Shown piece after piece: positions 3,876 through 51,626 of a stretch of DNA of 64,000 nucleotides. Numbering within the stretch: the stretch's first letter is position 1; every line of letters begins with the position of its first letter. Under the pieces are notes generated by a model, which saw only the letters and a list, made by a program, of their open reading frames with translations, did not search any database and was not told the DNA's origin. The stretch lies in NCBI GenBank assembly GCA_030265395.1, contig JARFYF010000002.1, positions 36,991,502-37,055,501 of the forward strand, read 5' to 3'. Both the position numbers and the translations under genes were made by a program. The DNA is from Rhina ancylostomus (lineage: Eukaryota).

Positions 3876-4344
3876 AAAGAGGGCTGCTATCATGGTAGGA
3901 GGAATATTTCTAGTATTTATTATTTCAACAGCTGAGTAATATAAAAGGACTGTAAATTAATAATTGGCAAAAGATATTTCCTTTTCCTATCCTCAGGAGC
4001 TCTGTTATTTAATGTCTCCTGAGCATGCCAGGAGATGGGCTGTTGATACCAGTGACAAATCCCATCAGCAAGTAGCTCTACTGCAATCCAAACCAATTCC
4101 TGATGCCATTCTGTAGGCAGCTGAGACTGGAAGCTCAGCACTGCCTTGTTCTTGCCATGTAATTGGGTCGATAGTAAATCTGAAGTAATGTAGACTAGAC
4201 AAGACCGCTAAGTGGGCTTTCAAAGACCTCCACATTTCAGTTTATTATGCTTTCTTCTGAGAGGAAAAGGACAGCGAGCCTTAGAGCCATGAAAACATTT
4301 TGTGAATAAGAATGTGAATAAGCTGAATGAGTATGTGCCACCTC

Positions 4345-5065
4345 TTCACGCTTTATACTCCAGTAATATTTATCCTGCTGCAACACTTATCTTACAGTAA
4401 CATTTATACAGTTAGAATTTCTATTNNNNNNNNNNNNNNNNNNNNNNNNNNNNNNNNNNNNNNNNNNNNNNNNNNNNNNNNNNNNNNNNNNNNNNNNNNN
4501 NNNNNNNNNNNNNNNNNNNNNNNNNNNNNNNNNNNNNNNNNNNNNNNNTACACTCCAAAATGAAACAGACAATACTGCTTTTACTTCTCAAACCTAATAA
4601 GTCTGAAACCACAAAATTAATCATTGTATTTCAGAAAAAAATTACACTGCTGTAATATTTATCCTGTGATGTTTATAGTGTAATAAGATTATATCGCAGT
4701 AATATTTTATGTTGCAGTATGATTTTTACCATAAATACATCTTACAGTAATATTTATACTGCCATAATTTTTATACCGCTGTAATATTTGTATTGCAGTA
4801 AGATTTATTCTATTGCAAATATTGTAGTAGTAAGGACACTACAGTAATATTTAAGCTGTAGTAATATTGATCGCACACTAATCTTTGTATTCCAGCAATA
4901 TTTGTGCTGCAGTTATATTTTTATTGCATTAATATTGCTATCATGGCAATGTTTATCCAACACTAACCTACATCAGTAATATTTGTGCTGTGGCAGTGTT
5001 TATATTGCAGTGATGTTGGTACATTAGTAATATCTATTCCACAATAATATATATATTGCGGGGAT
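4345..5065. repeat. AT-rich degenerate minisatellite, unit about 18-20 nt (cagtaatatttatactg-like), containing an N gap
   Basis: Many variants of 'cagtaatattt' followed by 'tactg/attgca'. Confidence 0.75.
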
Positions 5066-6958
5066 GTTTGCTTCAATGCTGGCAGGATACTGAGCAAAAT
5101 AATGGTGCAATGGGACCAACCTCCAGTCATAAGCTGTAATGCTAAATACACTAGGCTTGAAATTTGCTTTCAAGCTGCTTTCCAATGCTGTTTGATCATG
5201 TTATTTTAATCAGAAAGGAATGTGAAAAATAGAGGTTGTTGCACTCTGACTTCAGATGGGGCTATATATTATCATTTAATTACTGACACAAACATTATTA
5301 TACTGTGCTGAGATAGCAGCACAATCATTTGAATTGTTTTGAGTGAACCCTTAACTGCACACTCTTTGTACCATTAATAAAAAAGAAACAGACCATGCCT
5401 GTGATTTTTGTTTTGAAAGCCATCTGTGGTTGATCTGTTGAAATTTTTGAAATCTGCAATAAGCAAGGGGGTTCTGCAGCTAACATTACAGAAGAGATGT
5501 AGGATATGCTTTCTAGTTGCTTTCTGAGCCGGGCAGTGTTACCTGACACTGCAACTGTAACTGGGAATCATATGAGAAGGAAACAGGGCAAGGAAAAGGA
5601 AAGTTAAAGTCAACAATAAAGTACAAGATAAAGAAGAAAGATTTTGGTCAATGTTATTCATGTTTTCTGTCTTTATAAAGATAAAGTTAATTTTAAAATG
5701 GATAGAAAGTTACTTGAGGTGGATTCATAACTTAAAATGTGTAAAGATTTATAATGGGGTAAAATTGTAAAATTATTCCTGTAACTGCCAGCACCAGTTC
5801 TGATAGCCACAAAGTGGATCTCTGCATGCACAGATGGCCTTTAATCCAGAAGGACAACGTTTAATTTCTGTGAATTTCTGCAGCTTCAAGATAGGTTACT
5901 GTTTTGTAGCAGTTTATATAATTCAGTGTGATTTATATAATTCACTGTGATTTACCCATTTGTATCACTTATGAATTATGATTCATTTGTCATTATATTG
6001 ACACATGCATATACAGTATACATCCTGACATTGTGTAAGCTAGAGAGGTTCAAAATTAATGGGATAGAAATTCCTGGCATTAGTTGATATATAATCATTA
6101 TTTGGGTTTTAGTGGAGTACTTGGCATTTATTTGTCCTGTTTCAAAATTCGAGTGAGGGTGGTTCTTGCCTAAATCCAAAGAATAAGCAGTACTGTTTGG
6201 GAGCCATCTGTCATAATACCCAGCATTTCCACTTTCATTTCCCTTTATATTTTAATGCAGTGATCCTTATCTTACTAACATTTCATATTGACGGGAATGG
6301 GGCCGTGTTTACTAATCTTCTGTAAATTAGTTCCTCCATTGGAATATTCTGTTCCTTAATTAGTGGCAAACTGCTACTCTGAAATTCATCTTGAATTGTG
6401 AAGGCATACAGTAGATAGCTCAGGTGATTTGCCTCGTTTCCCAGTATCTGGGACATAATACTAGAGCAACTGCTAGATGAAGGTCTCAATATGCAAAACC
6501 TGCAGTCCAAAGAAGAACCAAGAATTTTGAAGCTGCCACTGTTAAGCGTGTTGATGGACAATAAATGTTTTGTACATGTTAATTTTTATTCATAGCAATT
6601 GTTGGTTTGGCTGCACTTGGAGCATTGTGTGCCGTTTTGGTCATCATGCAAAAGGAAGGATGTGATTAAGCTAGAGAGGATGCAGAAAAGATTCACAGTA
6701 ATGTTGTCTGGATTGGAGAGCTTGTGTTATAAGGAGAGATTGCATAGGCTGGTTTTGCTTTCTCTGCAGTAAAAGGGGCTGAGAGGTGATCTTGTAGAGG
6801 TTTATAAAATTGTGAGGGGCATAGCTAGGGTAGATAGTCACAGTCTTTTTCCCAGGCTCCCAGGCCAGAGGAGTCGAAAACCAGAGGGCATAAGTGTAAT
6901 ACACAAAAAGTGCTGGAGGAACTCAGCAAGTCAGGCAGCATCCATGGAGGGAAATAAA

Positions 6959-6996
6959 CAGTCGACATTCCAGGCCAAGACCCTTTATCAGGACTG
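6959..6996 (-). ncRNA. Degenerate minimal hammerhead ribozyme motif (antisense copy)
   Basis: The reverse complement reads CAGTC CTGATAA A GGGT-CTTG-GCCT GGAA TGTC GACTG. Stem I is perfect, the core is mutated. Confidence 0.6.
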
Positions 6997-7106
6997 GAAA
7001 GGAAGAGGGCCAAAGCCCTCTCACCTGTACTTGCTTATCCCCTGCCTATGTGTACTCCTCCCCTTGCCCCCCGCCTTCTTATATTGGCTTCTGCCCTCTT
7101 CATTTC

Positions 7107-7144
7107 CAGTCCTGATGAAGGGTCTTGGCCTGAAACGTCGCCTG
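7107..7144 (+). ncRNA. Minimal type-I hammerhead ribozyme motif (PLE type)
   Basis: CAGTC CTGATGA A GGGT-CTTG-GCCT GAAA CGTC GCCTG. Intact CUGAUGA and GAAA core, stem II hairpin, palindromic ACGU stem III, GUC cleavage triplet, stem I with one mismatch. Confidence 0.75.
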
Positions 7145-8549
7145 TTTATTTCCCTCCATGGATGCTGCCTGACCTGCTGAGTTCCCCCAGCATTTTGTAT
7201 ATTGCTCCTGACTCCAGCATCTGCAGAATTTCTTCCATCTCAGGCATAGATGTAAGATGGGGAGGGGGAGATTTAAAGGGTATCTGAGGCGCAAGATTAT
7301 TACATAGAGAGTGGTGGGGACATGGAATGAGCCGCCAGAAGAGATGGTAGAGGCATGTACAAAAACAATGTTTAAAAGATATTTGGACAGGAGTATGTGT
7401 AGGAAAGCTTTAGTGGGATATGGGCCAAATGGGATTAGGTTAAATAGGCATTTTGGTTGGTATAGACAAATCGGGCCAAAGGGCCTGTTTCTGTGCTGTA
7501 TAACTCTATGAATCCATAAGAATATGGATTTAAGTTGGGAAATATCACTTGACATAAGTTAAATTATCTGTTGAGTTGGGGGGGGTGGGGGAAGGTAGGA
7601 ACTCTTTTCCTGTTTCTCTACTCTTTTTCCAGGTTGAAATAACCTTTTTTTTGTGGCTCTAGGTCAAATTTTGTTTGATAGTGCTCCTGTGAGGCACTTT
7701 GGAACACTTTTTAAAGTTGGAGGTGCTATATAAGAGCATGTAGTGGTTGCCGCTTTTTCATTGTATTCAATATAACACCAAGTCCCTTCACCAAGCTCAC
7801 TTTAGGTATTGGTGGTGGGGGGCGGGGGTGGTGGTAGAAGAGGGGAAGGTTTGCCAAACATTCATTCAAGGAGGCTTTAGATTTTAAGAAAACAATTTGC
7901 TGCAAAATGTTTCTGTACAGAGAAGTCCTTGCACAACAGTGCAGATCTAGTTGAGCGGCCATAAAGTGCCACGACAAGGATATACACAAAAATGCAATGA
8001 TGATACAAGAATCATCCTGTTAAAGGTTATATGGACCATTTATATAAAGGATCAGTGCCACACTGTACCTTAGAGTTAAATAGAGATTATTTCAGACTGC
8101 TAAGTGATTCAATTTGAGAGTGCATGTTGTGTGTAACAATGCAATTGCACAAATCACCCAGCATACAGCTACATTGCCAGTGCAGGTCTTCTTGGTAACT
8201 CTGTTAAGCAGATGCTTACACATACTTAGTTACAGGTGTAAGGCTAGTCAGCATTAACATTTCCTTTTTTTTAAATGTTTATGAAACTGACATATATTTT
8301 AGGAAAATTGCATAAAATCAAGACATTTCCTGCAGCATTGTAGGAGGAGTTTGACAGGAGCCTCTAAATCATGGTCAGGAGCTCCGTATAATGTACTTGC
8401 CGCATAGCCTGAGGGTCATTGGCAGCCCTTATCCTTTTTATCTGTGACTTGGTGGAAGTGCTATTCCATGGTCCTTGAACTTACAATCATAGTCCTTGCA
8501 GCTCTGAGACATTGCCATTCTAGGGGTTCAAAATAGAAGAAGAAAAATC

Positions 8550-12930: not shown

Positions 12931-13035
12931 TCCAGAGTCCTGAAGAAGGGGCCTGACCTGAAACATTGACTGCCTGCTTTTCTTCACGGATGCTTCCTGG
13001 CTTGCTGAGTTCCTCCAGCATCGTGGTGTTTTTCA
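12931..13035 (+). mobile_element. PLE terminal fragment with hammerhead-like motif
   Basis: AGTC CTGAAGA A GGGG-CCTG-ACCT GAAA CATT GACT, then 'ggatgcttcctggcttgctgagttcctccagca'. Confidence 0.75.
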
Positions 13036-15330: not shown

Positions 15331-16761
15331 GTGACAAACCTTTCCTTGTGTGACTACCAGTCTATAGGCTACTTGCCTTCTTTATGCTGTAATCAACACC
15401 ATCCCCATGTAGATGAGCAGAATCCTACTCACCAGCTGGAGCCCCACTGTGCCCCTATCTCTGTCATGCAGCATTCTGCTGTCAGTCACAAGTCTGAGAA
15501 CTCTCAGCCATTGGCAATCAACTTTCAGCTCAAGGATTTTGAAAAACAATGTTGAGTAATGAAGGGATAATTGATAGTCAAAATACATTGCTAATCTGTG
15601 TCAGATACAAAAGAGTAAACTTGATTCATTTGGGGAAAACCTGAAAAATGAAGCTGTAAAATTATTCCTTGAGAAGGATCTGAACGGCAGCAAAGGACTC
15701 GATTGTTGAAGATGTCTTAAGTTTCTCTGTTTATAGCTATTTTGAATTAAATGTTTCCAATAATGTTTCATTAAGAGTTTTGAAGAAATATGCCTTTGCA
15801 GCATGAATGAAATTCTCTCTATTGCCACCTTGTACCACTGCCATCCTGTGGCAGTCTCCCTTCGCGACTGTGAGTGGTTACAATTTGAAATCCACTGACT
15901 GAAAGGGTAGTAAAAGCAGATGCTGTGGTAACCTTCAAAACTGAATGGAATAAGTACTTGAAAATGAGAACATTGCCGGGCTATGGGAAAAGACCAGAGG
16001 AATATGACTAATTTTTCCTGAGGTGGCATAGCCACAAGGGCTTTTTTCTGTGGGGTGGGGGAGTATAAGCACATCTTTTTGGTATCTTCATCTCAATTGA
16101 GTAGTTCTTTTGTATCTTTCTGATTTATCCCAGAGCACTAAGTAGTTTACAATGCAGCTTGTTTTTACTCTCTCAGTTATTCAGAGGCTTCATTGCCAAT
16201 TTGTCTTGGTTCCCACTAAAAGCAATTAATACAAAAGCATTGGATAGGCAGCAGCTTTATTACACTCATGCACCTGTGGTTTCAATAGAAGCTGGGTGTT
16301 ACATAAATAAGCCATTGAAATAGGCAGCTAATACTAAGCAAATCAACACTGCAGTTGTTTGGTTAGGGGCGTGATGCTTAAAATTGCACAACTGCTATTA
16401 GTGACATTTAGAAGTATTTCTTTGATTCAGAAGAACCCTAACTTTCAGCAATCTGTTAACTGAACTTGGAATGCTTTTTTTTGTGGGATTTATCATTCTC
16501 AGAGAGTAAAAGATTGCCACCTTTTTTCCATCTAAGTGTTGCTCTTGACATCATTCATGGGCATGGTTTGCTGAGTTTGTTCACCATTTTTGGTGGAGTG
16601 TTTTTGCCACTTGACTTATGCTTTGCATCAGATTGGTCCCAGATTTCACCCGTATTCTGTGCTGAGCTTGCTGTTGTTAGGAGGAGCAGTGGTGTGGACT
16701 AGTTTCAGCATTTTGAGCAGAGACTGGGATAGTGTAATGAGAAAATACCCCCTCCAGATCT

Positions 16762-16830
16762 AGGGTCTTGACCCAAATCGTCAACTGTCCAGCTACCTCC
16801 ACGGCTGTTGAGTTCCTGCAGCATGTTTCC
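16762..16830 (+). mobile_element. Degenerate PLE terminal fragment
   Basis: 'agggtcttgacccaaatcgtcaactgtcc...gttgagttcctgcagca' keeps stem II and downstream sequence only. Confidence 0.55.
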
Positions 16831-19194
16831 AGAAAATCTTTGTTGCCCGAAGTGAAAAGATATTTTCTCTTCAATCAGTAAACTTTTATAGCAGCATTTG
16901 CTTTGCAGAAATGCTCACTGACTACATTTATAAGGTTACTGCCTCAGGTCATGTGAAAATGTGTGCGTGTGCATGTGTGTACACGTGAGACAGTGTATGT
17001 ATTTCTATTTTTATTTCAGCTTGATTTTTTTTCCCAGTTGCTTAATGGAGAATTTTACTTAATTTTTTTTGGTATCTGTGAAGTCTGGCATAACTCTGTG
17101 TGTATTAAGGTGATTGCCAAAATTCCAAATTTATAACACAGAGCAATGTTTACTGTGATTTGGGTACATTGGTCTTTCAGTCCAATAAAGTTTTCAGTTC
17201 CATTTTAATGTTCAGAAAATCCTGTGAAATTACTGAGATTGACTCCTGTGGTGTAGCATGACATTGCTTGTTTAGCCATTATCGGAGTGTTTTGGATATC
17301 ATTAATGAGGAATTGCAGAGTTTTATCAATACCTTAAAACTTGTATTTACATTCTGGTCTTAACATAAGAAATATAAAAGCATTCTACAGATGAAGAGAG
17401 GATACAAAAAGTGAAGGAAATGAGACAGTTACAGTAATGGGAAAGTTTATTTATGGAGAGCTTCAGAACCAGGTAAGGATGATGTAGCAGAGGGATTTGG
17501 AAGGACCACCACAGCTGAAGGATTGGTAGGAGCATGAGTTGAAGTAGATTAGTGCAGATTGTTTGCAAGATCATAAAACTTGGAGGAGATCAGAAAACCA
17601 GGTTAGGGATGATCAAAAAGAACTTTAACATGAAGATCAAGGATATTTGAACCTTTGTGATACAGGAAAGCAGCAATACATGGTGGGCAGGATTTTGAGG
17701 GAGGTCCAGGGCTTTGTATCGCATGCAGACTATGGATTGGATCTAGAGTTAGAAGCTCAGCTCAAGGTCAAGCACAATAGTAGGCGTTTGAACCTTGGAG
17801 TTAAGCAGCCTGGGATAGTAGCCTGCAGATGATCACAGAGGAGGAGGATTTCCCTCATTGGTTATCATGACACTGATTATTTCAGTACAGTGACAAAGTC
17901 AATTATTTTAACAGACAGATATAGTGATGAATTCTGACAATAACAAATTGATTATTTTCGTCATTAGTTGACATTCAGAAAAATTATTGAATTAAAAATC
18001 TGAATTGCTCTTAAACTTTGTTGGTTAACTTCCACCAGCCATTTCAACCATTAACAAACATTGCCAGAAACAACTCCATCTGTATCTGAGGATTGGTGGT
18101 TCTGGAATCCAAACACAATTGTCTTCAATCGGTTGCAGGCTTTGTGCTTGTTTTCTTTATAATGTGGTCTGTTTTGGAATTTTTTTGGTAAACCCAATCA
18201 TTTTCCAACTTCTGCCTTCCTGTAATTATCATTCCGGTAGGAAATACTCTGTTTCTGGCTGCTTTGGAATGATGCTCTTTACTTTGCGTTGATGAATGTT
18301 TAAAAACTCTCATGGAATGCAGCATGACTGTGCAATGCATTGTTTCTCCAGTTCGTTAATCTTTACTTCCTAGTTCTATTGCTAATGATCCAAAGTGAGG
18401 TGGGTGCATCTGGACCATTCTGTTCTCTGACTTCCATTTCAGGACTATAATATAAAATGCAGACCCCATGATTCCAGATAATATTTTCTGTGTCCAGCCT
18501 GTTGGTGTTTAGCCTGATGATTAGGAATAATCAAAAATAAATACCACATCCTGAAAGCTGGAGATAACATTGTGACAGCTCCATTGGTTGCCAACCATTT
18601 TCAGATTTTTGGAATTTTTAAATCTCTCTTTTGCATTCTGATGATTGTTGCAGGGTAAGTCCTGCTTTTTGATAATCCCTTCAAATGTTTTCTCTACTAG
18701 TGCAGCCAGTCACTGGAAGAACCAACTAACTGGCAACATCTTTATCTCAGTATTGAAGGAATTGATTTCAGAGTATGGAAAGCAATTAGAAATGGAAATC
18801 TTTGTGGTGCAACTCACGCTGTATTAGATAAAGTATTTTTATAACATTGTGTTTAAAATATGACACCAAGGGAACAGAACTCAGAGCAGAACAATAGAGA
18901 TTTTAAGCCTTCTGTGGCTGGAGATAATCAGCAAGAATGATTGGATCGGCAGAGCTCCAGATAGTCTCGGAATGTGCCATGGACCATTCTCGAACTTGTT
19001 GGTCCAAATCTTTTGGAAGCCCCCCTATTCCTCTTAAAACTAGTTTAATATAGTCTATAATCCCTGTATGTAATAGCTGAAGAAGCAAATCATATTGTTG
19101 AACTGCTTTATTTTTCATTTTACATTGTAGAACACAACTAATGAGATGCTGAGTTCTTTCAAATGACCACAAAGTAGGCAAGTAGAAAAAATGG

Positions 19195-20881: not shown

Positions 20882-23371
20882 GGGAAAGACAGTGGATAGG
20901 GAAGCAGATCCTAGGAAGGTGTGAGAATAACAGAGTCATTGTGATGGGGGATTTTAATTTCCCAAACATCGATTGGCATCTCCAAACAGTGAGGGGTTTG
21001 GATGGGGTGGAGTTTGTAGGTGTGTTCAGGAAGGGTTCTTAACAAAGTTTGTAGATAGATCTACAAGAGGAGAAGCTGTGCTTGATTTGATTCTGGGAAA
21101 CGAACCTGGTCAGGTGTCAGATCTCTTGGTGGGTGAACATTTTGGTGATAGTGATCATAATTCAATCTCCTTTACGTTAGCACTGGAGAGGGATAGGAAC
21201 AGACAGACTAGAAAGGTGTTTACTTGGAGGAAAGGGAATTATGAGGCTCTCAGGCAGGAAATTGGAAGATTAAATTGGGAACAGATTTTCTCTGGGAAAA
21301 GTACGGAAGAAATATGGCAAATATTCAGGGGATATCTGTGTGGAGTTCTGCATAGACATGTCCCGATGAGACAGGGGAGTCACGAGAGGATACAGGAACC
21401 GTGCTGTACGAAGACTATAATAAATCTAGTCAAAAGGAAAAGAAAAGCATACAAAAGGTACAGAGAGCTAGGTAATGCTAGAGATCTGGAACAGTACAAG
21501 GCTAAAAGGAAGGAACTTAACAAAGAGGTTAGGAGAGCCAGAAGGGGACGTGAGAAGGCCTTGGCGGGCAGGATTAAGGAAAACCCCAAGGCGTTCTACA
21601 AGTATGTGAAGAGTAAGGGGATGAGATGCGAAAGGATAGGGCCTATCAAGTGCAGCAGTGGGAAAGTGTATATGGATCCGGAAGAAATAGCGGAGGTACT
21701 TAATGAATACTTTAGGTCAGTATTCACTACGGACAAAGATCTGGGGGATTGTAGTGGGGACTTACAGCAGCCTGAAAAACTTGAGCAGCTAGAGATTAGA
21801 AAAGAGGTGGTGCTGAAACTTTTGGAAAGCATCAAGTTAGATAAGTCACTGGGACCGGATGAGCTGTACCTCAGGTTGCTGTGGGAGGCGAGGGAGGAGA
21901 TTGCGGAGCCTCTGACGATAATCTTTGCATTGTCGATGGAGATGGGAGAGGCTCCGGAAGATTGGAGGGTTGCGGATGTTGTTCCCTTATTCAAGAAGGG
22001 GAGTAGGGATAGCCCAGGGAACTATAGACCAGTGAGTCTTACCTCAGTGGTTGGTAAGCTGATGGAGAAGATCCCGAGAGGCAGGATTTATGAACATTTG
22101 GAGAGGTATAATATGATTAGGAATAGTCAGCATGGCTTTGTCAAGTGCAGGTCCTGCCTTATGAGCCTGATTGAATTTTTGAGGATGTGACTAAACACAC
22201 TGATGAAGGGAGAGCAGTAAATATAGTGTATATGGATTTCAGAAAGGCATTTGATAAGGTACACCATGCAAGGCTTATTGTGAAAGTAAGGAGGCATGGG
22301 ATCCAAGGAGACATTGCATTGTGGATCCAGGACTGGCTGGCCCACAGAAGGCAAAGAGTGGTTGTTGAAGGGCCGTATTCTGCATAGAGGTCTGTGACTA
22401 GCAGTGTGCCTCAGGGGTCTGTTCTGGGAACGTTAGTCTTTGTGATTTTTATTAACGACCTGGATGAGGAAGTGGAGGCATGAGTTAGTAAGTTTGCTGA
22501 TGACACAAAGGTTGGAATTGTTGTGGATAGTGTGGAGGGCTGTCAGAGGTTACAACGGGACATAGATAGAATGCAAAACTAGATTGAGAACTGGCAGATG
22601 GAGTTCACACTTATCTAAGTGTGAAGTGGTTCATCTTGGTAGGTCAAATATGATGGCATAATGTAGTATTAATGGTAAGACTCTTGGCAGTGTGAAGGAT
22701 CAGAGGGATCTTGGGGTCCCAGTACATAGGACGCTCAAAGCAGCTGCCCAGGTTGACTCTCTGCGTAAGTCCTTCATCAATCATGGAATGGAAGTTAGGA
22801 GCCGAGAGGAAATGTTAAAGCTGTGTAGGACACTGGACGGACCCCAATTGGAGTACTGTGCTCAGTTCTGGTCGCCTCACTACAGGAAAGATCTGAAAGC
22901 CATATAAAGGGTGCAGACGAGATTTACAAGGATGTTGCCTAGATTGGGGAGCATGCATGATGAGAACAGATGGAGTGAACTTGGCCTTTTCTCTTTGGAG
23001 CGATGGAGGATGAGGGGAGACCTGATAGAGGTGTATAAGATGATGAGAGGCATTGACCGTGTGGATAGTAAGAGGCTTTTACCCAGGGCAGAAATCGTTG
23101 CCACAAGAGGACACAGGTTTAAGGTATAAAGGAGATGTCAGGGGTACGCTCTTTACTTAGAGAGTGATGAGTGCATGGAATGGACTGCCGGCAACAGTGG
23201 TGGAAGCGGATACAATANNNNNNNNNNNNNNNNNNNNNNNNNNNNNNNNNNNNNNNNNNNNNNNNNNNNNNNNNNNNNNNNNNNNNNNNNNNNNNNNNNN
23301 NNNNNNNNNNNNNNNNNGGCTGAAGGGCCTGAATTGTGCTGTAGTTTTTACTATGTTTCTTTCTATGTTTC
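20882..23371 (+). mobile_element. 5'-truncated CR1 (HER1-like) LINE, ORF2 pseudogene (endonuclease end plus RT)
   Basis: MGDFNFPNIDW and SDHN (APE endonuclease), NYRPVSLTSVVGKLME, DFRKAFDKV, vPQGSVLG and FADDTK (RT). Frameshifts and stops present. (ATGTTTCT)n tail. 12-bp TSD TACAAATGGACA (20870-20881) and TATAAATGGACA (23372-23383). Confidence 0.95.
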
Positions 23372-27257: not shown

Positions 27258-27336
27258 AAACAAGAGACTGCAGATGCTGGAATCTAGGTCAAAAAAACAA
27301 ACTGTGGAGGAGCTGAGTGGGTCAGGCAACATCCAC
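27258..27336 (-). mobile_element. PLE 3' terminal fragment
   Basis: 'gagactgcagatgctggaatct...gagctgagtgggtcaggcaacatcc' is the reverse complement of the PLE terminus. Confidence 0.7.
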
Positions 27337-28626
27337 TTGATGGAGAGCCAGTGTCACAGGAGAGTTTCATTCTTTCCTCCAATGATGTCCACAGAAATTA
27401 AGCTTCCAGGAAAGGACTTCTGACAATCATCAGGAAACTTTGCCTAAATTTTCTTCAAAAATATTCTATGGGAATTGAAGTCAACTGTAACCCCAGGATT
27501 CCAGTCATGTCTGGAATCAGCTGCCTGGGGATTGAGTTATAACATCTTTTTCACTAGAACCTGATCCTTGCTGTGCCAAAAAATCTTTCCCTGCTATTAT
27601 TGATTGCACTCTTTGATTTGGAGTGGTCTTGAAGACCATTCCTCTTAACTGGTGTGCAGGTAGACTATCCCATTAAAATTCAGTTTTGATCACCATTATT
27701 ATTATTGAAACTAATAGAAAGTAATCCAATTGCAACACCAGCTAAAATTTGGTATTAGTATTCCCAGTCACACCACGATGACTCAACTGTGTACAAACAT
27801 TGGTGATTGTAATGTATTGTGAGCATTAATAACGCAGCGCTTTAAACATTTCTAATATATATCAGCTCATGGAATTTTACAGTCTCTCAGATTGTTCATC
27901 AGTGTACTTTCAGAAGTAACGCCACAGTCATCAATCCTCTAGTGTCAATGGCATCACACTTGAAGGACAAGGTGTGCATTGGAACTCAGCCAGCCATGTA
28001 CAAGAAAAGCTCCACACACCAAGAGCTCAGGCACAATGACATTGTGAAAGTTTTCTGAGATAAAGGTTAATTCCAGAAGGATAGATCTTTGAACTTGCAT
28101 GGATTTGACAGGCTTTGTGCAGGATGTTTCAATAATGACTGAACATTATGTTCCAGGCACTCAGTGGATAGTGACTCTGATCGTGAATCCTTACTCATGC
28201 AGTTTTAAAAATTGTGGGTATCCCTTATGGATGTACAGCAAATGTATCTGTTGAAAATCACAACAAAACTGGAAGGTAGAAAAAAGATATCCAAAATTAA
28301 GCATTGAAGATGATAAATAATTAAATACTAACACAATCTGCAAACTTAAACTAGTATTCAGATAATGGCTGTAAATTGACAATTTGTTTATTTTGGGGTT
28401 TCATAGAGAGAGATAATAAGACTTATATTACAATGTTCATGATGTCAGTCTTCACAGCTGAAGGGGACCTATTAAAGAGTTGTCACTGATGTAATATAGG
28501 AAATGTGCCAGCAATTTGTTTTCCACAAGATCCCAGAGAACATAACAGAGACAATTGGATAATTGGCGAGAAATTTATCTTGAGTCAGTACCACTAAATG
28601 TTATAAATAGTACTTGTATGATATGG

Positions 28627-28825
28627 AAGAGACTCTAGGTGCTGGAATTTGGAGCAAAATATAAACTGCTGGAAGAGCTAAGTGGGTCAAGCAGTATCTG
28701 AGGAAGCAAAGTGTTGGTTAGCGTTAGGATCTGATGTAGGCGCTCAACCCGAAATGTTGACTGTCTCTTTGCCTCCACAGATGTTGCTTGATGCACTGAA
28801 TTGTGCCAACAGTTTATTTTTTTCT
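28627..28825. mobile_element. Inverted pair of PLE termini with a degenerate hammerhead (28731-28763)
   Basis: Minus-strand terminus at 28627-28725, then 'ctgatgtaggcgctcaacccgaaatgttgactg...cacagatgttgcttgatgcactgaattgtgccaacag'. Confidence 0.65.
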
Positions 28826-28979: not shown

Positions 28980-29205
28980 CAGAAAATAGTGGAAATAATT
29001 AACAGGTCAGACAGTATATTTGAAAAGAGAAACAGAAATTATATTTCATGTTGATGACCTTTCATGAGATAACCCATCATTCAGCTCATTGGTCTTAAAT
29101 GATAGCCTTTTTGTTCTTGCAACATGGATGCTGCCTGACTTACTGAACATCTCCAACACTTAAAATTTTAATTTAAGATTCCAGCATCCCCAGTATTTTG
29201 TTCTG
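28980..29205. mobile_element. Older inverted PLE-terminus remnant
   Basis: 'aacaggtcagacagtat' on the left and 'gatgctgcctgacttactgaacatctccaacac...agattccagcatc' on the right. Confidence 0.5.
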
Positions 29206-30468
29206 TTTCTCATGAGCTGAAATTTGGGTATAATATTTTCAAGGACTTCCCAGCTCATCATCTTCAAATTGATGTAAAATTTTTTTTGCCATCAAGAGTT
29301 TAAAATCATAATCACATAAGAACAATACCCCCATTATTGGCTCATCACTCTCCCTGTTCTGCACTAAAGTTTAAACCTGGGATGTGTTCATTTCTGTGGA
29401 GAATCAGTTAAACCTATGGCCATCAAATCATTCAGAGCCAAGAATACTACTGCTGAGCCAAGCTTGACAGCATTGTTTCATTGCTACCTAATAACCATCG
29501 CTTTGTAGGAATAGTCCATTATTATGTGTTTACTCACATGCATCAAAGTTTAGAAGCAAGCAATGAGCAAACAAGGTACCATGAGTTAGTGTCAATATCT
29601 TCTTACTACAAAACTCTTAGCAAAACATTGGATATTCAAAGGTAGTCATTTTATTTCGAGGTTAGCTGGATATTTTTATAGTACAAAGGGCTGCTCAGTG
29701 ATTGAGCTAATATTTGTCTTATTATTTACAAATAAGATATGGATATTTAGTATTGATTACTTTTGTCAACACGTTTAAATGACGTCAACAGAATATTTTA
29801 CCAAATATTTCTTGCACACATTCCAATAGGCAGAGCTTGGCAGAAAGAAATGTTATATTTCTATAGAATATCATTTTGCAAACTAATATTGGTCTGCTGC
29901 ATTCTCTAATATTTTCTGCTTGTAACCTGATAGAATGTTGTATTTTGATATGGTATCCAATATTCTTGTTACTTTAGCTCTTAAATTTGAAGCGATTGTC
30001 AATTCTGAGCATGTATAGAATCAAGTTCAAATCCTGTAAGGTTTAGAATCCTATAGGTTTTTCCAGTAAAACCACAGTGAGGGATTTGTATTAATTTATT
30101 TTAGGGAGAAAAGAGATTCAGCTATTGGAATGTCGATGGGCAAACCACAACGAAGTGAGAGGATTTTGCTACTGACCTAAATCCTGGCATGAAGTGATTT
30201 ATTTTCCCTACATTAATGGTGAACACTGAGTCATCATAATGACCATTAATGAGCTGAAGGGGTGTTAGTTATAGGTGATGAATGCATCTTGTCTTGACTT
30301 CCAGCACCTTACCTAGTACATGAGCTATGCCCTGATTTGTACTATGTGACCATCTTTTCTTGTTTCTCATTTATTTTTCATGATGTTCTTAATGAAACCT
30401 GCGCTGAACTTTGACTGTATACCTCTGATGAAGAGGCTGACATTGAAATCGTGTATTTCCTTTTACAG

Positions 30469-30624
30469 CTTGTGGGTGGGGATTCTATAAATCATCATCA
30501 CAGGACCATCAATGTGCTCGCTGCCCAGCTCACAGTCACACAGACCGGGAAGGCTCCTCACGATGTGAATGTGAGGATGGCTACTACAGAGCCCTTACTG
30601 ACCCTCCCTCAGTACCTTGTACAA
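30469..30624 (+). CDS. EPHA7: Eph receptor internal exon, Cys-rich/EGF-like region (equivalent to EPHA7 exon 4)
   Basis: Acceptor tttccttttacag, donor A|gtaagt, 156 nt, phase 1-1. Translates (x)CGWGFYKSSSQDHQCARCPAHSHTDREGSSRCECEDGYYRALTDPPSVPCT(R), close to EPHA7 CGRGFYKSSSQDLQCSRCP...CECEDGYYRA as I recall it. Not shown in the ORF track. Confidence 0.93.
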
Positions 30625-31314
30625 GTAAGTTCAGTCATTTTCGCTTGTGCATCATGGTTTTCAGATATATCATGGATATTACTTCCTATTCAGCTAAAGG
30701 GCCTGATTTATGGCTAGTAATCCAGTTAATGGGTTATTCACTTTCCCAGTTCTAATTGTACATTACCTGAGGACAGAAGCAAGTGGTGTTTTTCCTATGT
30801 TCTTGCAAGCTTTAGAGACCAGCATAAATTCAACATTGCTGCATCCATTGAACAGAGGTGGGAAGACCATAGAGTTTGGTCCTGATGTCTAGTTTGATGC
30901 TGCATGTATCTGCATTTATCTGAGTGGGGACTCCAGGTGCCCAAGCCCAGCATGGAGATCATTTGGTATCAGTTCTTACTGAATTTACCACTTATTCTTT
31001 GAGTGGAGAGGAGGAGAGTGGGAGACAGGTCTTATTCTTCTGTGATGCATTATGCCAAGACCACCATATTTAATGTAAATTACAATGATTGCACTTGAAT
31101 AGGATATCTGGCCCATTCTCTGGAGAGCCAATATATCAGTTAATACGTTCCATAACCTAAAACACTTCCTAATAAAAGAAAAAAAATTACAATTGCCTTT
31201 TAGTGATTCATGTAGAGCTAAAAATATGATAATTCACATCATGGCCAGTTAACGAACATATCTGTATTTGATGGCTTGCCTTTAACTGATGATGTTTGTT
31301 TTCTGATTCCTAAG
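30625..31314 (+). other. EPHA7: 690-nt GT-AG intron
   Basis: gtaagt...ttttctgattcctaag. Splicing joins A+GA to give Arg and restores CTRPPSAP. Confidence 0.9.
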
Positions 31315-31650
31315 GACCTCCTTCTGCACCACAAAATCTCATTTATAACATAAACCAGACCACAGTGAATCTTGAGTGGGGCCCGCCAGCAGATACCGGA
31401 GGCCGAGACGATGTCACCTACAGGATAATGTGCAAACGATGCAGCTGGGAACAGGGCGAGTGCATGCCCTGTGGCAGCAGCATTGGCTTCATGCCTCAGC
31501 AGACCGGACTGGCAGATACATATGTGACTGTTGTAGACCTACTGGCCCACGCTAACTACACATTCGAGGTTGAAGCCGTGAATGGTGTCTCAGACCTGAG
31601 CCGCACCCAGAGGTTATTTGCAGCCGTCAGCATTACCACAAGTCAAGCAG
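31315..31650 (+). CDS. EPHA7: Eph receptor internal exon, first FN3 repeat (equivalent to EPHA7 exon 5)
   Basis: 336 nt, phase 1-1, donor CAG|gtgaga. Translates (R)PPSAPQNLIYNINQTTVNLEWGPPADTGGRDDVTYRIMCKRCSWEQGECMPCGSSIGFMPQQTGLADTYVTVVDLLAHANYTFEVEAVNGVSDLSRTQRLFAAVSITTSQA. CKRCSWEQGEC and QRLFAAVSITT point to EPHA7. Confidence 0.95.
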
Positions 31651-34600
31651 GTGAGATGGTGATCCAGTAAGGGTCAAAAATAGACTCATGCACAGTCTGT
31701 GTAATGATCAGTGTTATTTTGCACTCACAAATGAGGGGTTAGTAATTTCTCCTTACTCAGTTGTATTAAATACACAGCAAAGTAGTGGTTCCAAGTTTTA
31801 TTGAGCTTCTAAAATTTATCAGCTGCTGCTCTATTGCAAATGACTGTGGATGAATTTCCACTCTGTGCCATCTTCACAAAGCACTTACTGTTTATCTTTT
31901 GCTTAATCTCCAGAAACCTCTTCACAATTTAAACGTCTGCATTGCTTTTACTGGTTAATTCTTCTTTGCATCAATCACCCAGTGCCGAGCCTATAAATTT
32001 TGTATTATTTACTTGAAGGTCAATTTTAGGTGCAGCTGGTGGTTTTTGAATTCTAATTGCCATCAATCATAGTGTTTTTTGATACCTGAAATTAAGTCAG
32101 TTATTTTGAATATGAGGGTCCTTCAACTAACATGAAAAGAAAATAAGCGTTACTCTGATATTATGCCCGAATCCTCCTCAGCCCACTCATTTAAAAAAAA
32201 GAAGCTTCAGTTTCTCGGTCTCTCATAACTGTGAACCTCTCATAATCACTTTAGCAAATCACTTTTGAATCTTCCTACAATCATCACGAGCTCCTAAAGT
32301 AGCAGCAGGTGTACAATTTTGATACAAAAGCAGTAAGATGAACGCCACCTTCTTATCATTTAGACTCTCAGGGCCATTCTCATTTTGTAACTGTGTTGGC
32401 TTCTGCTCAATCCTCAGTGCTATCTGCAGAATTAAGAATCTGTCACTTGTATTTGTGAATATTCGATTTGCACCATCATTCACTGTGCAAAGTAACAATA
32501 GTTAAATCAATATATCGAGAAATTCTAGAGCCCTGGGTAAGTCTGGGTTAGATGATTGTGGCATCAACCTGCTGATGACAGTTTTGGTCGGTTTAACTTG
32601 TTAGTGTCTGAAGCCCAAACCTTGGGCACGATGGTACAGGCATTCTGGTTTCTCAGGAGTGAAAATGTGCCACTTGGGGAGAAAGGAATTGTAGTTGTTG
32701 GCCCAGTTGGGGCACAGGAAGGAGTCAGTGATCAGAAATCAGAAGGCGGGGATTGGGGGCAGCAATTAGGTTTGTGGATGGAGGAGTGTCGGGCAATGAC
32801 TGGGTAAGTGGTTAGAGGATTCTGGTGAAAATCAGGGCATCAGGTCTTCAGGAGGTAGAAGTGCAGATCAATGAATGGAGGATTTTATGCCAGTTCAATT
32901 GGAAGATAGTGGTGGCAGCTGTAGCTGGAGTGTGCTGACTGACACCAAACACTTGTAGTGTTCATCACCTTCAAAGTTCAAGATTGGATAGTCACTTTAA
33001 CATGTTTTTGGTAGAACATTCACTTGGAGACTTTTTTTACAGTTCTTCCTAATTTCTGAAGTATCTGCCTCTTGACAATTTCAAATTGTTTCAGTGTTTT
33101 TCTTTATTTACACAATTATTAAGCATAGTGACTATTAAAGTAGAAATGATGGATAGACACTTAATAATGTGTTTATATGACGTTCGTCTGTGAGCTGTTT
33201 AAATGAGAGAGTATTAACAACATTTGAAATTGAGTTTTAAAGCAGCTTTTCTGCTATTGGAGAATCACAGGTTAAACTGGAAATCCAATTTATAATCAAT
33301 TGGGAACAGCAAATGTTCATCACTGAAAATAGTTAATGTTGTTTATCTTAACTTCATTTAGTGAAGGAAGTTTGTAGTTTGCCAAGTGTTTGTACTTATT
33401 TATAGCACATAGAATTTGTGCTCTTATAAGGACAAAGCAGCCTTACTATTGCCTTCCAATGCAGCAGAAAGTTAACAGCCATTATATGCTGTAATGCTCC
33501 AATTGGTGTTCCATTAGATCTGCTGTCCTAGACATCACAGAAGAATTACTAGTTTACATAAAATAAATCATTCACAGTTCTGTTTTACATTTGTTTCTAA
33601 GGACACACTGCAAATGTAAACCATATTGAAATGCATCGATACGTATCAGAGAGTGTTGTAACTGTGACAAAGAAAGATACAACTATCTTTTGTCTTCACA
33701 ATCAATAAAAGATTGTAACAAGGTTTTTTGGATGGAAGCAACAGAGCTTTAAAAGCTGAGGCACCAAAACTATTTTTATAGTTCTTTTTCCTTCTAGTCT
33801 TAATTGTTTTAACAGATTTAGTTTGTTACAGGATATGGTCTGCTGCTTACATTAAATACAAATATAACTCTGTTGTCACCATAGGGATTGTATACTGGTT
33901 ATTCAAAACATGTAGCTCTTTGATCTTGCTATTTACCAGTTTGGTTTGAAAGTATTTAATCTTAGCCCATCACAACTCACTACAGATATGCAGTAATAGT
34001 GTGCTGGAGACCACCAGACTATTTTCAAAATGTCCTTGGCATGTGTAAGTAGTTTTAAGCCAATTTTCAGATATGTACTCTCCATAGCTTAGTCTCCCCA
34101 ACCTGAGCCAATGTGGGCTCAAGTCATCTCACTCTATCAGGCAGGACAAAGGGTTAGTGTTGTCTTGACAACTATTATTTGTATGGGTAATCCAAGTACC
34201 TATTTGGGCCACCAGAAAGAATACTGTCTCGTTAAAAAAACCAATGGAGGGCACCAGTGTAATCCACCCAAGGGTTTGTTTCAAGAGTTGTAAACACATG
34301 ATAAATAAAGCAGTGATCAGCATTTTTACAGTGCTGATTTGATTTATGTTGCTGAATGTCAAAATCAGGACCCTGGTCAATAATGGCATGATAGAATGTG
34401 CGCAGCTAAGGAAGCAGAGGATTTTTAACTGGCACAAGCTGATTTATCATTAAGCTAGCTCAGTGAAAATGTTTCTGGGCAGCCAAATGGAGATCAATTA
34501 ACTGCTAAGTCCATGGGAAAAAAATTAGCAACCTTGCTGCACTCCATTTGCCGAGAGGTCAAGCACTAAGAGAGAGATAATTGCTGTGAGCAAGCAGAAT

Positions 34601-36135: not shown

Positions 36136-36185
36136 ACAGATGCTGCATGATCTGCTGAGTTCCACCGGCAGATTGTTTGTTGCTA
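36136..36185 (+). mobile_element. PLE terminal fragment next to a gap
   Basis: 'acagatgctgcatgatctgctgagttccaccggcagattg'. Confidence 0.6.
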
Positions 36186-42042: not shown

Positions 42043-42298
42043 GGGTAGCACAGTAGTGTAGCGGTTAGTGTAACGCTATTTCAGCACCAGCGATCAGGGT
42101 TCAATTCCTGCCGCTGTCTGTAAGGAGTTTGTATGTTCTCCCTGAGTCTGCTTGGGTTTCCTCTGGGTGCTCCGGTTCACTCGCACATTTCAAAGACATG
42201 TGGGTAGGTTAACATGGGTTTAAATGGGGGGTGCGGACTCGTTGGGCCAGAAGAGCCTGTTACTGCGCTGTATAAATCAAGTTTTTAAACGTTTAAAA
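42043..42298 (+). mobile_element. tRNA-derived V-SINE (HE1-like)
   Basis: A box TAGTGTAGCGG (42054-42064), B box GGTTCAATTCC (42098-42108), V-domain 'ggagtttgtatgttctccc..gggtttcctctgggtgctccggtt' and a CR1-like tail. Confidence 0.88.
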
Positions 42299-42395
42299 CA
42301 CCACTGAAGCCTTTTCCGAGATTAGATGTGTCATGATAAAATGTAATAAAATGAAACCAGCTAAAAACTACTACTCTTTTTCTGTTTTAATCAAG

Positions 42396-43317
42396 TCATT
42401 GGAGGACTTTCTAACGCTCAGTTAAGCACGTCCAGAGCAATACATAACGGAAAGCAAAATGCTGACAGTAGTTCAACCACAGCGCCCAGTGCACCAAACA
42501 GCAGAGAGTCCAGAAGATTGACCAACACAGTGAACATGGAATCCAACAGAGTGCACAGCAATCAAAGCATGGGGTACAGTACAAAAAAAAGCACATCTAG
42601 CACAGCATCCAGCACAGCAAACACAGAATTCAGAACAGCAACCAGCATATCAAGTGCAGTAACCTGTGTAATGGTATGTGCCACAGAGCCCAACACAATG
42701 CCCAGCACTCCAACGACACAGTACAGCACAACGATGACAATAACCACAGAGTGCATCATACCAGCAACAACAACTACAGAAACCAGCACATTGACAACAG
42801 ACTCCATTTCTCCAAGCACCTTGACTACAGAGTTCACCACATCAGCTGTCACATCAACTACAGAGCTCAGCACACCCACCACATCAAACACAGTGGACAG
42901 CACACCGACAAGCACATCGACCATGGAGACCAGTACATCGACCACAGTTTCCAGCACACCCACCAGCACATTGACTACAGCATCCATTACTCCAACCACC
43001 CTGCGAACATCAACAACAGTGACTAGCACACCCACCAGCACATCACCCACAGAAACCAGCACATTCATCAGCACATGGACAACTGTGTCCAGCACACCCA
43101 CTAGCACATGGACCACAGTGTCCAGCACACCGACCACAGAGACAAGGGCGTCAACCAGCACATCGATCACAGTGTCCAGCACACCCACCAGCGCAATGAC
43201 CACAGAAACCAGCACATGGACCACAAAAACCAGCACATCGATGACAGAGTCCATTAATCCCACCCTGCCGACATCGACCACAGTGACCAGCACACCGACC
43301 AGCACGTCAACCACAGT
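42396..43317 (+). repeat. Thr/Ser-rich codon-phased repeat, candidate mucin-like exon (3' end hidden in a gap)
   Basis: Units such as ACC AGC ACA / TCG ACC ACA / GTG keep the frame open from 42365 to the gap at 43318. Preceded by CTACTCTTTTTCTGTTTTAATCAAG. The repeat is certain, exon status is not. Confidence 0.6.
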
Positions 43318-43417
43318 NNNNNNNNNNNNNNNNNNNNNNNNNNNNNNNNNNNNNNNNNNNNNNNNNNNNNNNNNNNNNNNNNNNNNNNNNNNNNNNNNNN
43401 NNNNNNNNNNNNNNNNN

Positions 43418-43606
43418 TCAGGGTTCAATTCCTGCCGCTGTCTGTAAGGAGTTTGTTTGTTCTCCCCGTGACTCTGTGGGTTTCCTCTGGGTGCTCTGGT
43501 TTCCTCCCATGTTCCAAAGATGTACAGGTTAGTAGGTTAACATGGGTGTAATTGGGCTAGAAGGGCCTGTTACCGTGTTGTATAAATAAAGTTTAAAGTT
43601 TAAAAA
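43418..43606 (+). mobile_element. V-SINE (HE1-like), 5' end in gap
   Basis: B box gggttcaattcc, V-domain and tail close to 42043-42298. Confidence 0.88.
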
Positions 43607-45565: not shown

Positions 45566-46348
45566 GGAACATCTGAAAATCGTAACTATTTAATTGAGCT
45601 GCACTGCTTCTGTTCTTGGATAAATTATCTCCCTCTGCTCTCCAGGTGGCCTTAGTAGTGCAGATCCAGGAAGTGGAACATAATGAGGTTCCTCTTTTTG
45701 ATCTGGAGCTCTGATGTGAGTGGCATTCGGTGATGTTTTCTGCGAGGTTCACAATATATTGGTTCTTGAGCCCAAGTGTGATGTCCCTGCAGTCAAGTAA
45801 TTCACCAACTCTAATATCAGCTCAACTTCTACTTAAGTTATCTATCAAATGGAATCATACTTTGGCACTTGCAAGAAGAGGAAAAACAGGGGAAGAAGCT
45901 GTTCCTGAAACATTGAGTGTGGGTCTTCAGGCTCCTGTACCTCCTCCCCCATGGCAGTAATGAGAAGAGGGCATGTCCTGGAAGGTGAGGGTCCTTAATG
46001 ATGGATGCTGCCTTCTTGAGGCGGAACATCTGAAAATCGTAAATATTTAATTGAGCTGTACTGCTTCTGTTCTTGGACAAATTATCTCCCTCTGATGCTC
46101 TCCAGGTGGCCTTAGTAGCGCAGATCCAGGAAGTGGAACATAATGAGGTTCCTCTTTTGGATCTGGAGCTCTGATGTGATTGGCATTCAGTGATGTTTTC
46201 TGCGAGGTTCACAATATATTGGTTCCTGACCCCAAGTGTGATGTCCCTGCAGTCAAGTAATTTACCAACTCTAATGTCAATTCAACTTCTACTTAAGTTA
46301 TCTATCAAATGGAATCATACTTTAGCACTTGCAAGAGGGGGAAAAACA
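45566..46348 (+). repeat. Direct duplication, 45566-45888 and 46023-46348, about 95% identical
   Basis: Manual alignment gives about 16 substitutions and one 3-nt indel. Confidence 0.95.
45889..46022 (-). mobile_element. Rex/Babar-like LINE fragment between the duplicates
   Basis: The minus strand encodes LKKAASIIKDPHLPGHALFSLLPWGRRYRSLKTHTQCFRNSFFP, same family as 19450-19801. Confidence 0.8.
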
Positions 46349-49734: not shown

Positions 49735-51626
49735 TATACCTGAACTTCAATTTCTCTTGTGTCCTCGTGTCTCAACTCCACTTTGCCCCCCATGGTTCAG
49801 TCCCTTCCCACCTATATCCATGGCACTTCGTATGCCCTCCCCCACTTCAATAACTTCCGGTTCCCCGACCCTGACTGCTTCATTTTCATCATGGGCATCC
49901 AGTTCCATCCCCTACCAGGAAGGCTTCAAGTCTGTCCGCTTCTTTCTTGATAGCAGATCCAACCAGTTCCCCTCCACCACCAACCTTCTCCATCTGGCAG
50001 AACTGATACTCGCCCTCAACAACTCTTTTGATTCCTCCCACTTTCCCCAGATCAAAGATGTAGCTATGGGCATTCACGTGGGCCCCAGCTATGCCTGTCT
50101 TTTTGTTGGCTACATGGAACAATTCATGTTTCAAACCTACAGCAGTAATACTCCCTGACTCTTTCTCCATTACATTGACAACTGCACTGGGGCTGTTTCC
50201 TGCACCCATGCGGAGCTCATCAATTTCATCAACTTCGCCACCAACTTCCACCCAGCCCTCAAATTCACTTGGTCCATCTTCAACACTTCTCTCTCCTTTC
50301 TTGGTCTCTCTGTCTCCATCTCTGGAGACCAGATTATCTACCAACATCTTTTACAAACTCACTGACTCCTGCTGTTACCCTGACTACACCTCTTAACACC
50401 CTGTCACTCGCAAGGATACTATTCCCTTCTCTCCGTTCCTCCATCTACCCTGCATCTGTTCTCATGATGAGGCTTTCCACTTCAGGATATCTGAGATGTC
50501 CTCTTTTTCTTCAGAAAACTGAGACCCCCCCCCCCCGCTATCAAGNNNNNNNNNNNNNNNNNNNNNNNNNNNNNNNNNNNNNNNNNNNNNNNNNNNNNNN
50601 NNNNNNNNNNNNNNNNNNNNNNNNNNNNNNNNNNNNNNNNNNNNNNNNNNNNNNNNNNNNNNNNNNNNNNNNNNNNNNNNNNNNNNNNNNNNNNNNNNNN
50701 NNNNNNNNNNNNNNNNNNNNNNNNNNNNNNNNNNNNNNNNNNNNNNNNNNNNNNNNNNNNNNNNNNNNNNNNNNNNNNNNNNNNNNNNNNNNNNNNNNNN
50801 NNNNNNNNNNNNNNNNNNNNNNNNNNNNNNNNNNNNNNNNNNNNNNNNNNNNNNNNNNNNNNNNNNNNNNNNNNNNNNNNNNNNNNNNNNNNNNNNNNNN
50901 NNNNNNNNNNNNNNNNNNNNNNNNNNNNNNNNNNNNNNNNNNNNNNNNNNNNNNNNNNNNNNNNNNNNNNNNNNNNNNNNNNNNNNNNNNNNNNNNNNNN
51001 NNNNNNNNNNNNNNNNNNNNNNNNNNNNNNNNNNNNNNNNNNNNNNNNNNNNNNNNNNNNNNNNNNNNNNNNNNNNNNNNNNNNNNNNNNNNNNNNNNNN
51101 NNNNNNNNNNNNNNNNNNNNNNNNNNNNNNNNNNNNNNNNNNNNNNNNNNNNNNNNNNNNNNNNNNNNNNNNNNNNNNNNNNNNNNNNNNNNNNNNNNNN
51201 NNNNNNNNNNNNNNNNNNNNNNNNNNNNNNNNNNNNNNNNNTCATCCCTCTGGCCCCTTTGCCCCTTCTCTTTCCCCTCCCTTGCCCTCACGACCTGTTC
51301 ATCACCCACACCTTCCTCCCTCTGGTTCCCCACCTCCTTCCCTTTATTCCATGGTCTACTGTCCTCTTTTATCAGATGACATCTTCTTCAGCCCTTTGCC
51401 TCTTCCACCTATCACCTCCCAGCTTCTCACACTATTCCCACTTCCCCCCCTTCCCCACCTGCATAGCATCCCCCTCTCATCTGGATTCACCTATCACTCG
51501 CCAGCTTCTGCCCTCTTTCTTTCCAGTCGTGATGAAGGATCTCGGCCCGAAACGTCGACTGTTCATTTCCCTCCGTGGATGTGCCTGACCTGCTGAGTTC
51601 TTCCAGCATTTTGTGCGTGTTGCTTC
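49735..51626 (+). mobile_element. Penelope-like element, RT pseudogene plus 3' terminus (gap 50546-51241)
   Basis: PMVQSLPTYI, SIPYQEG, LAELILALNNSFDSSHFPQIKDVAMGIHVGPSYACLFVGYMEQ, YIDN (for YIDD) and FYKLTDS are PLE RT motifs, broken by frameshifts. The terminus carries a hammerhead motif. Confidence 0.88.
51524..51561 (+). ncRNA. Minimal hammerhead motif with one core substitution
   Basis: CAGTC GTGATGA A GGAT-CTCG-GCCC GAAA CGTC GACTG. Perfect stem I and ACGU palindrome, C3 changed to G, one mismatch in stem II. Confidence 0.7.

Follow-up and report, generated by a model that had tools for sequence, protein, structure and literature searches.

Minimal hammerhead ribozymes within the repeats of Penelope-like elements (PLEs) have already been published (Cervera and de la Pena 2014, PMC4209133), and the accessible part of that work describes thousands of such motifs per vertebrate genome, mostly as solo copies and in some cases as opposite-strand pairs. 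These minimal PLE hammerheads are reported there to be inactive as monomers and weak as dimers, with which the available sections of a later review agree (PMC6765202). For the EN+ PLEs of the Neptune and Nematis type, the text of Craig et al. 2021 that is at hand (PMC8557442) gives a CX2-5CXXC linker between the RT and the GIY-YIG nuclease, and lists an inverted 5'-truncated copy accompanied by a one-sided tail of 30-40 nt as typical of such elements. In vitro work that includes PAc, an Anolis element of the Poseidon clade, shows both strands being primed, with two start sites at the borders of the tail, and in the sections available to us hammerhead mutants are described as having had no effect on PLE insertion in vitro (PMC11167929). 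Hammerheads that are conserved across species and active are also described, in the part of PMC3088659 consulted, from introns of the amniote genes C10orf118 and RECK, and the available text of a 2026 preprint (10.64898/2026.07.22.740005) reports retrozymes in one chondrichthyan together with cleavage in one of nine Xenopus dimer elements. We found no publication on the ray PLE hammerhead family described here in a literature whose coverage is thin for subscription journals; the accessible text of PMC4209133 names neither sharks nor rays, though its supplements may list motifs from them.

The locus considered here, at positions 7107-7144 of a 64,000-nucleotide window from Rhina ancylostomus (the whole stretch of DNA that was analysed), resembles the minimal PLE hammerheads, as far as the accessible text of PMC4209133 describes them, in its type I layout with a 5-bp stem I, an unpaired base before stem II, a palindromic 15.2-16.2 segment and the lack of a stem III loop, and its family likewise consists mostly of solo copies of truncated PLEs, with opposite-strand pairs 100-700 nt apart. 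Stem II has 4 bp here vs 7-8 bp in the Schistosoma families, and the 7107 copy itself has a G-U pair at 10.1-11.1 and differs from the minimal PLE form in a stem I mismatch. The order RT-linker-GIY-YIG, the 5' inverted copy, the tail at one end and the hammerhead near the 3' end are shared with Neptune and Nematis in the described portion of PMC8557442, whereas retention of only the last 225 nt and 118 nt, and insertion into a LINE and not a (TA)n repeat, set the locus apart. The two RT start sites recorded for PAc in the available part of PMC11167929 fit a pair of arms of which one is tailed and the other tail-less, although PAc belongs to another clade and its motif overlaps the ORF start. 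An intronic location is held in common with the C10orf118 and RECK hammerheads; unlike these (PMC3088659, in the part available), the 7107 copy has decayed, comes from a repeat present in many copies and has only a minimal stem III.

Results

The motif at 7107-7144, on the forward strand, is a minimal type-I hammerhead in which every strictly conserved core letter is present. The 5' strand of stem I (7107-7111) leads into the C3-A9 box (7112-7118), an extra A (9a, 7119), a 4-bp stem II (7120-7131) and the G12-A15.1 box (7132-7135); U16.1 is present, C17 is position 7139, and stem III is the palindromic ACGU alone (7135-7138). All of the segments expected of a minimal type-I PLE hammerhead (C3-A9, G12-A14, A15.1-U16.1 and H17) are found, and the unpaired A7119 between A9 and 10.1 is an A in 30/30 sampled copies as well. 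The first-pass annotation had read an intact core, a predicted site after C7139 and a stem III reduced to ACGU, and each of these readings was confirmed at its position. Pair 10.1-11.1 is G-U in this copy instead of G-C (G-C in 18/30 sampled copies, G-U in 8/30), and stem I has a U.C mismatch at its second pair (7110/7141), leaving the 7107 copy with no unbroken 4-5-bp stem I. A fully paired stem I occurs in 10/30 family copies, and since family-typical copies retain the stem that is broken here, we regard the 7107 copy as a decayed member of its family.

The host gene was identified from an exon at 31314-31652 that is 99% identical to P0121, annotated as ephrin type-A receptor 7 of a sawfish, with all top matches coming from sharks and rays. 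When P0121 was mapped to the window and to 200 kb of adjacent sequence, the motif fell, in sense orientation, within a 62.5-kb EphA7 intron that runs from the ligand-binding-domain exon, which ends 32 kb before the window start, to the exon at 30468-30623 (forward strand, aa 279-330 of P0121), the first exon downstream of the motif. The exon at 31317-31652 (forward strand) encodes aa 332-443 of P0121 in the fibronectin III domain. The earlier claim that the motif is sense to an Eph gene is borne out by this map, the gene being EphA7. A second family copy at 51524 lies in a later 95-kb EphA7 intron, 44.4 kb downstream of the motif with two exons between; by analogy with the human gene we take the two introns to be introns 3 and 5. 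The match to the ligand-binding-domain exon (G000:C2:36958626-36959205) is split into two segments that differ in frame and are separated by about 100 nt, possibly because of an assembly gap.

Other sequence in the window includes a Thr/Ser-rich open frame built of 12-, 21- and 33-nt repeat units at 42365-43447, located in an EphA7 intron; its borders are formed by a 103-nt direct repeat (at 42094 and 43418) and an assembly gap. The remains of a LINE, in which 410 aa are open and RVT_1 matches weakly, lie at 20958-23150, a tandem duplication of about 460 nt with 95% identity at 45566-46348, and a degenerate 17-nt tandem array at 4342-5074.

Taken as a single copy, the motif gives no signal above background. 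The two core boxes by themselves match twice in the window vs 2.03 matches expected, which is chance level; the 38-mer folds no better than its shuffles (z 0.07); and the Rfam comparison that had been proposed as a check returned no hammerhead model match, either for the whole window or for 7060-7200 alone. The reality of the motif rests on its genome-wide family. The genome contains 1,908 exact occurrences of a 15-letter core pattern (961 forward, 947 reverse) vs 3 of the reversed control pattern, and 24,184 exact copies of a 20-nt motif that follows shortly after it in the element 3' end. The 30 sampled copies show that family-typical members form stem I, stem II, the 9a base and the 15.2-16.2 palindrome. 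The first reading of the motif as a minimal type-I hammerhead of a Penelope-like element is supported both by this family and by its position behind an RT, described below.

The same numbers caution against reading function into an intact core. Core-intact copies occur at 0.87 per Mb, or in about one 64-kb window in 18 (~0.06 expected per window) without any selection, and with 1,908 such copies genome-wide an intact core is no sign of function. The C at position 1.2 of the 7107 copy is rare: A occupies this position in 30/30 copies chosen by the core only, and genome-wide A is found in 821 copies vs C in 7, the 7107 copy being one of those 7. When 30 copies were chosen by the 3' motif only, 6 matched the core pattern (stem II of one of these lacks 4 nt), and many of the 30 were truncated within or behind the hammerhead motif. 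Fourteen copies, of which 4 came from the window and 10 from the 30 sampled loci, were aligned and gave 89% pairing and a covariation of 0.129 vs 0.134 in shuffled alignments, with nothing above the shuffles; because 14 copies of one family are too closely related, we consider this test uninformative.

Leaving the 5' core free in the search yielded 2,668 matching copies vs 54 in the control, among which 821 are canonical, 372 carry U4A and 312 carry A9C. In a small sample (10 U4A, 8 A9C and 51 canonical copies) each variant travels with its own downstream letters, and so the U4A copies (for example L187 and L190) and the A9C copies (L203 and L207) look like sister subfamilies that spread with altered cores. 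Changes to the core are generally held to cripple hammerhead activity. Some natural hammerhead core variants do cleave, according to the available part of PMC3088659. One further locus, L047 (G000:C1:16526393-16529420), contains two core-intact motifs on the same strand 637 nt apart, the sole such pair among the loci scanned, and appears from this arrangement to be a better candidate for dimer cleavage than the 7107 copy.

The identity of the parent element was pursued through 20 extended RT loci. In 11/20 of these a same-strand motif follows the RT anchor at a distance of 1.6-1.95 kb, in 4/20 it is farther off, and in 5/20 none was found downstream (gaps or truncation), which places the motif in the PLE terminal repeat. 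RVT_1 scored above cut-off in one of five frames tried. Family copies align to P0014 and P0016 through the nuclease end, including a GIY-YIG-type segment, and relatives carry PF00078 and in some cases also PF01541, indicating an RT with a C-terminal GIY-YIG nuclease. A CX4CX2C linker, conforming to CX2-5CXXC, was seen in the translations of L091, L096, L099 and L104. These features suggest that the source element was a Neptune-type PLE (Neptune or Nematis layout), the clade being read from the linker motif and not from a tree. The 20 extended RT loci, all of them 5'-truncated or gapped, yielded no full-length element preceded by a pLTR.

Within the window, a longer relic of the family (49750-51620, forward strand) comprises an RT remnant, an assembly gap and a 3' end with a motif that carries C3G. 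The remnant itself, at 49753-50507 on the forward strand, is a broken PLE RT matched by tblastn with P0014 (E 3e-54) in three frames and followed by the gap; Pfam gave no match over this segment. The hammerhead copy of this relic, at 51524-51561 (forward strand), belongs to the same family as the 7107 copy and has C3G at 51529 and an A.C mismatch in stem II. The other core-intact copy in the gene region, at 12935-12972 on the forward strand, lies in the same intron as the 7107 copy and represents another subfamily, with A at N7 (the one free core position), a non-palindromic stem III and a G.A mismatch in stem II. Other ends of the PLE family, either older or truncated, were seen at 16751-16850, 27270-27340, 28661-28815, 29123-29170 and 36136-36184, and that at 28661-28815 looks like another fold-back pair.

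The motif sits inside a 343-nt head-to-head stump at 6900-7242. Its forward arm (7018-7242, 225 nt, forward strand) is a 5'-truncated PLE 3' end that carries the motif; the part preceding the motif, 7018-7106, matches pre-motif sequence in 9/20 RT-bearing loci, and a tail of about 35 nt (about 7208-7242) is present on this arm only. Ends of family copies cluster near 7195-7210 and 7225-7244. The inverted arm (6900-7017, 118 nt, reverse strand) is a second, tail-less copy of the PLE 3' end whose own motif, at 6959-6996 on the reverse strand, has G8A, A13G and an altered 15.2. The segment 6907-7017 is 91% complementary to 7086-7196 over 111 bp and lies 68 nt upstream of it. Target-site duplications of 13 nt flank the stump at 6887-6899 and 7243-7255 (forward strand; 11/13 identical), as judged from two uninterrupted copies of the host repeat (L010 and L045) that overlap the flanks by 13 nt and contain this segment once. 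The interrupted host repeat is an older dispersed LINE fragment (6600-7510, forward strand) whose flanks match adjoining parts of other copies; by its translation we take it to resemble CR1. The combination of an inverted truncated copy and a one-sided tail at 6900-7242 is that of EN+ PLEs of the Neptune and Nematis type. Fold-backs like this stump are common in the family, an upstream inverted arm being present in 4/30 core-intact copies. The layout of non-LTR retrozymes, in which head-to-tail units each carry a hammerhead, was not seen here; given the head-to-head arms, and two same-strand core-intact motifs within 3 kb at only 1/60 loci scanned (some loci repeated), we rejected a retrozyme reading.

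The capacity of the 7107 copy to cleave is probably compromised by its stem I and, according to fold predictions, by its surroundings. The C at 1.2 (7141) is a private change that disrupts the second stem I pair, beside the cut site. A modelled homodimer of the 7107 copy folds at -4.5 kcal/mol vs -14.7 and -19.3 kcal/mol for the natural intact copies L036 and L035, values of which the comparison alone is meaningful, as all dimer folds were less stable than alternative pairings and the model leaves the core unscored. Transcription reaches the inverted arm before the motif, which is predicted to be buried in a 111-bp hairpin: for 33 of its 38 nt the predicted probability of pairing with this arm is P >= 0.99, that of stems I and II is P 0.0000, and the stump folds with z -22. 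Forcing stems I and II would cost 63 kcal/mol, or 52 kcal/mol if the transcript ends at 7150, vs 9.7 kcal/mol without the inverted arm. The active fold is predicted to be inaccessible in the transcript by models that leave aside proteins, helicases and tertiary contacts.

The first-pass annotation had proposed that the 7107 copy could cleave when paired with 51524-51561 on the same transcript. Dimers work reciprocally, the core of one copy cutting the site of the other, and so the 51524 core matters for C7139. This core has C3G, a change that eliminated the activity of an Anolis PLE hammerhead in vitro (PMC11167929, in the sections available), and the copy is 44.4 kb and two exons away. With the roles exchanged, the 7107 core as enzyme strand would pair without mismatch in stem I to the 51524 site. 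With 12935 as partner, four pairs would be broken. The 264 kb around the gene (7.6% N) were searched for a sense partner and gave 38 matches, 2 of them core-intact (7107 and 12935), and no good partner was found there, 12935 fitting badly. On account of the stem I mismatch, the predicted hairpin and the C3G partner two exons away, cleavage of the EphA7 pre-mRNA by the 7107 copy appears unlikely, and the proposed cleavage through pairing with 51524 is not supported by these results.

We also looked for traces of selection. The arms differ at 10/111 positions, or about 4-5% per arm, a divergence at which by our own arithmetic the 15-letter core survives roughly half the time. Judged by eye, 6 differences fall on the inverted arm and 3 on the forward arm, with 1 unclear; three core letters were lost on the inverted arm and none on the forward arm. 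This asymmetry is a weak, non-significant point in favour of a working sense motif, and selection on the sense arm was rejected on the same ground, 6 vs 3 not being significant. The two core-intact copies of the gene region share the sense orientation (2/2), and across the coding span the 33 matches of any state divide into 20 sense and 13 antisense, so that EphA7 shows, in this small sample, no depletion of the sense strand.

Discussion

We are highly confident that the motif at 7107-7144 was inherited as the minimal hammerhead that a Neptune-type PLE carries in its 3' end, that it now sits in an EphA7 intron within the head-to-head stump of such an element, and that it likely does not cut, as it is predicted to be buried in a hairpin with its own inverted arm. 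The stump would go back to short stretches of reverse transcription that began at two start sites of the element RNA, with both strands of the nicked target as primers; start sites at the borders of the tail would yield one tailed and one tail-less arm. Thereafter the stump would have decayed neutrally, each arm changing by about 4-5%. While it was part of the source element, the motif probably had weak activity as a dimer in tandem transcripts. Transcription of the intron would produce the inverted arm first, and the emerging motif would pair with it, the likely product at the RNA level being a 111-bp intronic double strand rather than a ribozyme.

That the motif merely matches a hammerhead core by chance can practically be dismissed, even though its core boxes occur at chance level in the window, Rfam gave no match and 14 aligned copies show no covariation above shuffles, since copies across the family have stems I and II, the 9a base (30/30), a G-C or G-U pair at 10.1-11.1 (26/30) and the 15.2-16.2 palindrome, which are the very extras listed for minimal PLE hammerheads in the accessible text of PMC4209133, and the motif stands at the expected place in a PLE. 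Hairpins of this kind get edited, and it is conceivable, if improbable, that the stump matters to its host not as a ribozyme but as an intronic double-stranded RNA hairpin, either an editing substrate or a splicing modifier: its 111-bp arms are 91% complementary and fold with a z of -22. Against such a role, the nearest mapped exons lie at distances of 23 kb and 39 kb, the family has many such fold-backs, and the differences between the arms do not look compensatory.

A very unlikely reading is that the 7107 copy cleaves, or helps to cleave, EphA7 pre-mRNA as a dimer with 51524, 12935 or element RNA in trans, perhaps assisted by a PLE protein. Its complete core, palindromic ACGU and sense orientation would suit this role, as would the perfect stem I that its core could form with the 51524 site; some dimer activity of PLE hammerheads (PMC4209133) and protein assistance to one of them (PMC11167929) are reported in the available parts of these papers. 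Set against this are the predicted hairpin with its own inverted arm, a stem I mismatch whenever 7139 is the substrate, the C3G core of 51524 two exons away and the four broken pairs with 12935; moreover, even intact PLE motifs cleave poorly in vitro in the described part of PMC4209133, and eight of nine Xenopus dimer elements did not cleave, as given in the accessible text of 10.64898/2026.07.22.740005. The mismatch, the predicted hairpin and the defective partner also led us to reject a co-opted intronic ribozyme. What remains is a real and inherited but probably inactive hammerhead in a PLE stump.

It is highly improbable that this PLE-derived hammerhead cuts EphA7 pre-mRNA in vivo, with proteins opening the hairpin and the motif pairing with element RNA in trans or with a second intronic copy; if it did, PLE stumps scattered throughout shark and ray genomes would act as conditional sites for cutting introns. 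The single 7107 copy is otherwise of little import, being transposon debris of a published kind. Its lesson is that an intact core is insufficient evidence of a working hammerhead, and that stem I, the local fold and the partner core need checking too. The more than 800 copies with an intact core and inner stem I, together with the putative U4A and A9C subfamilies, offer modestly useful natural material for asking whether PLEs need their hammerhead to move.
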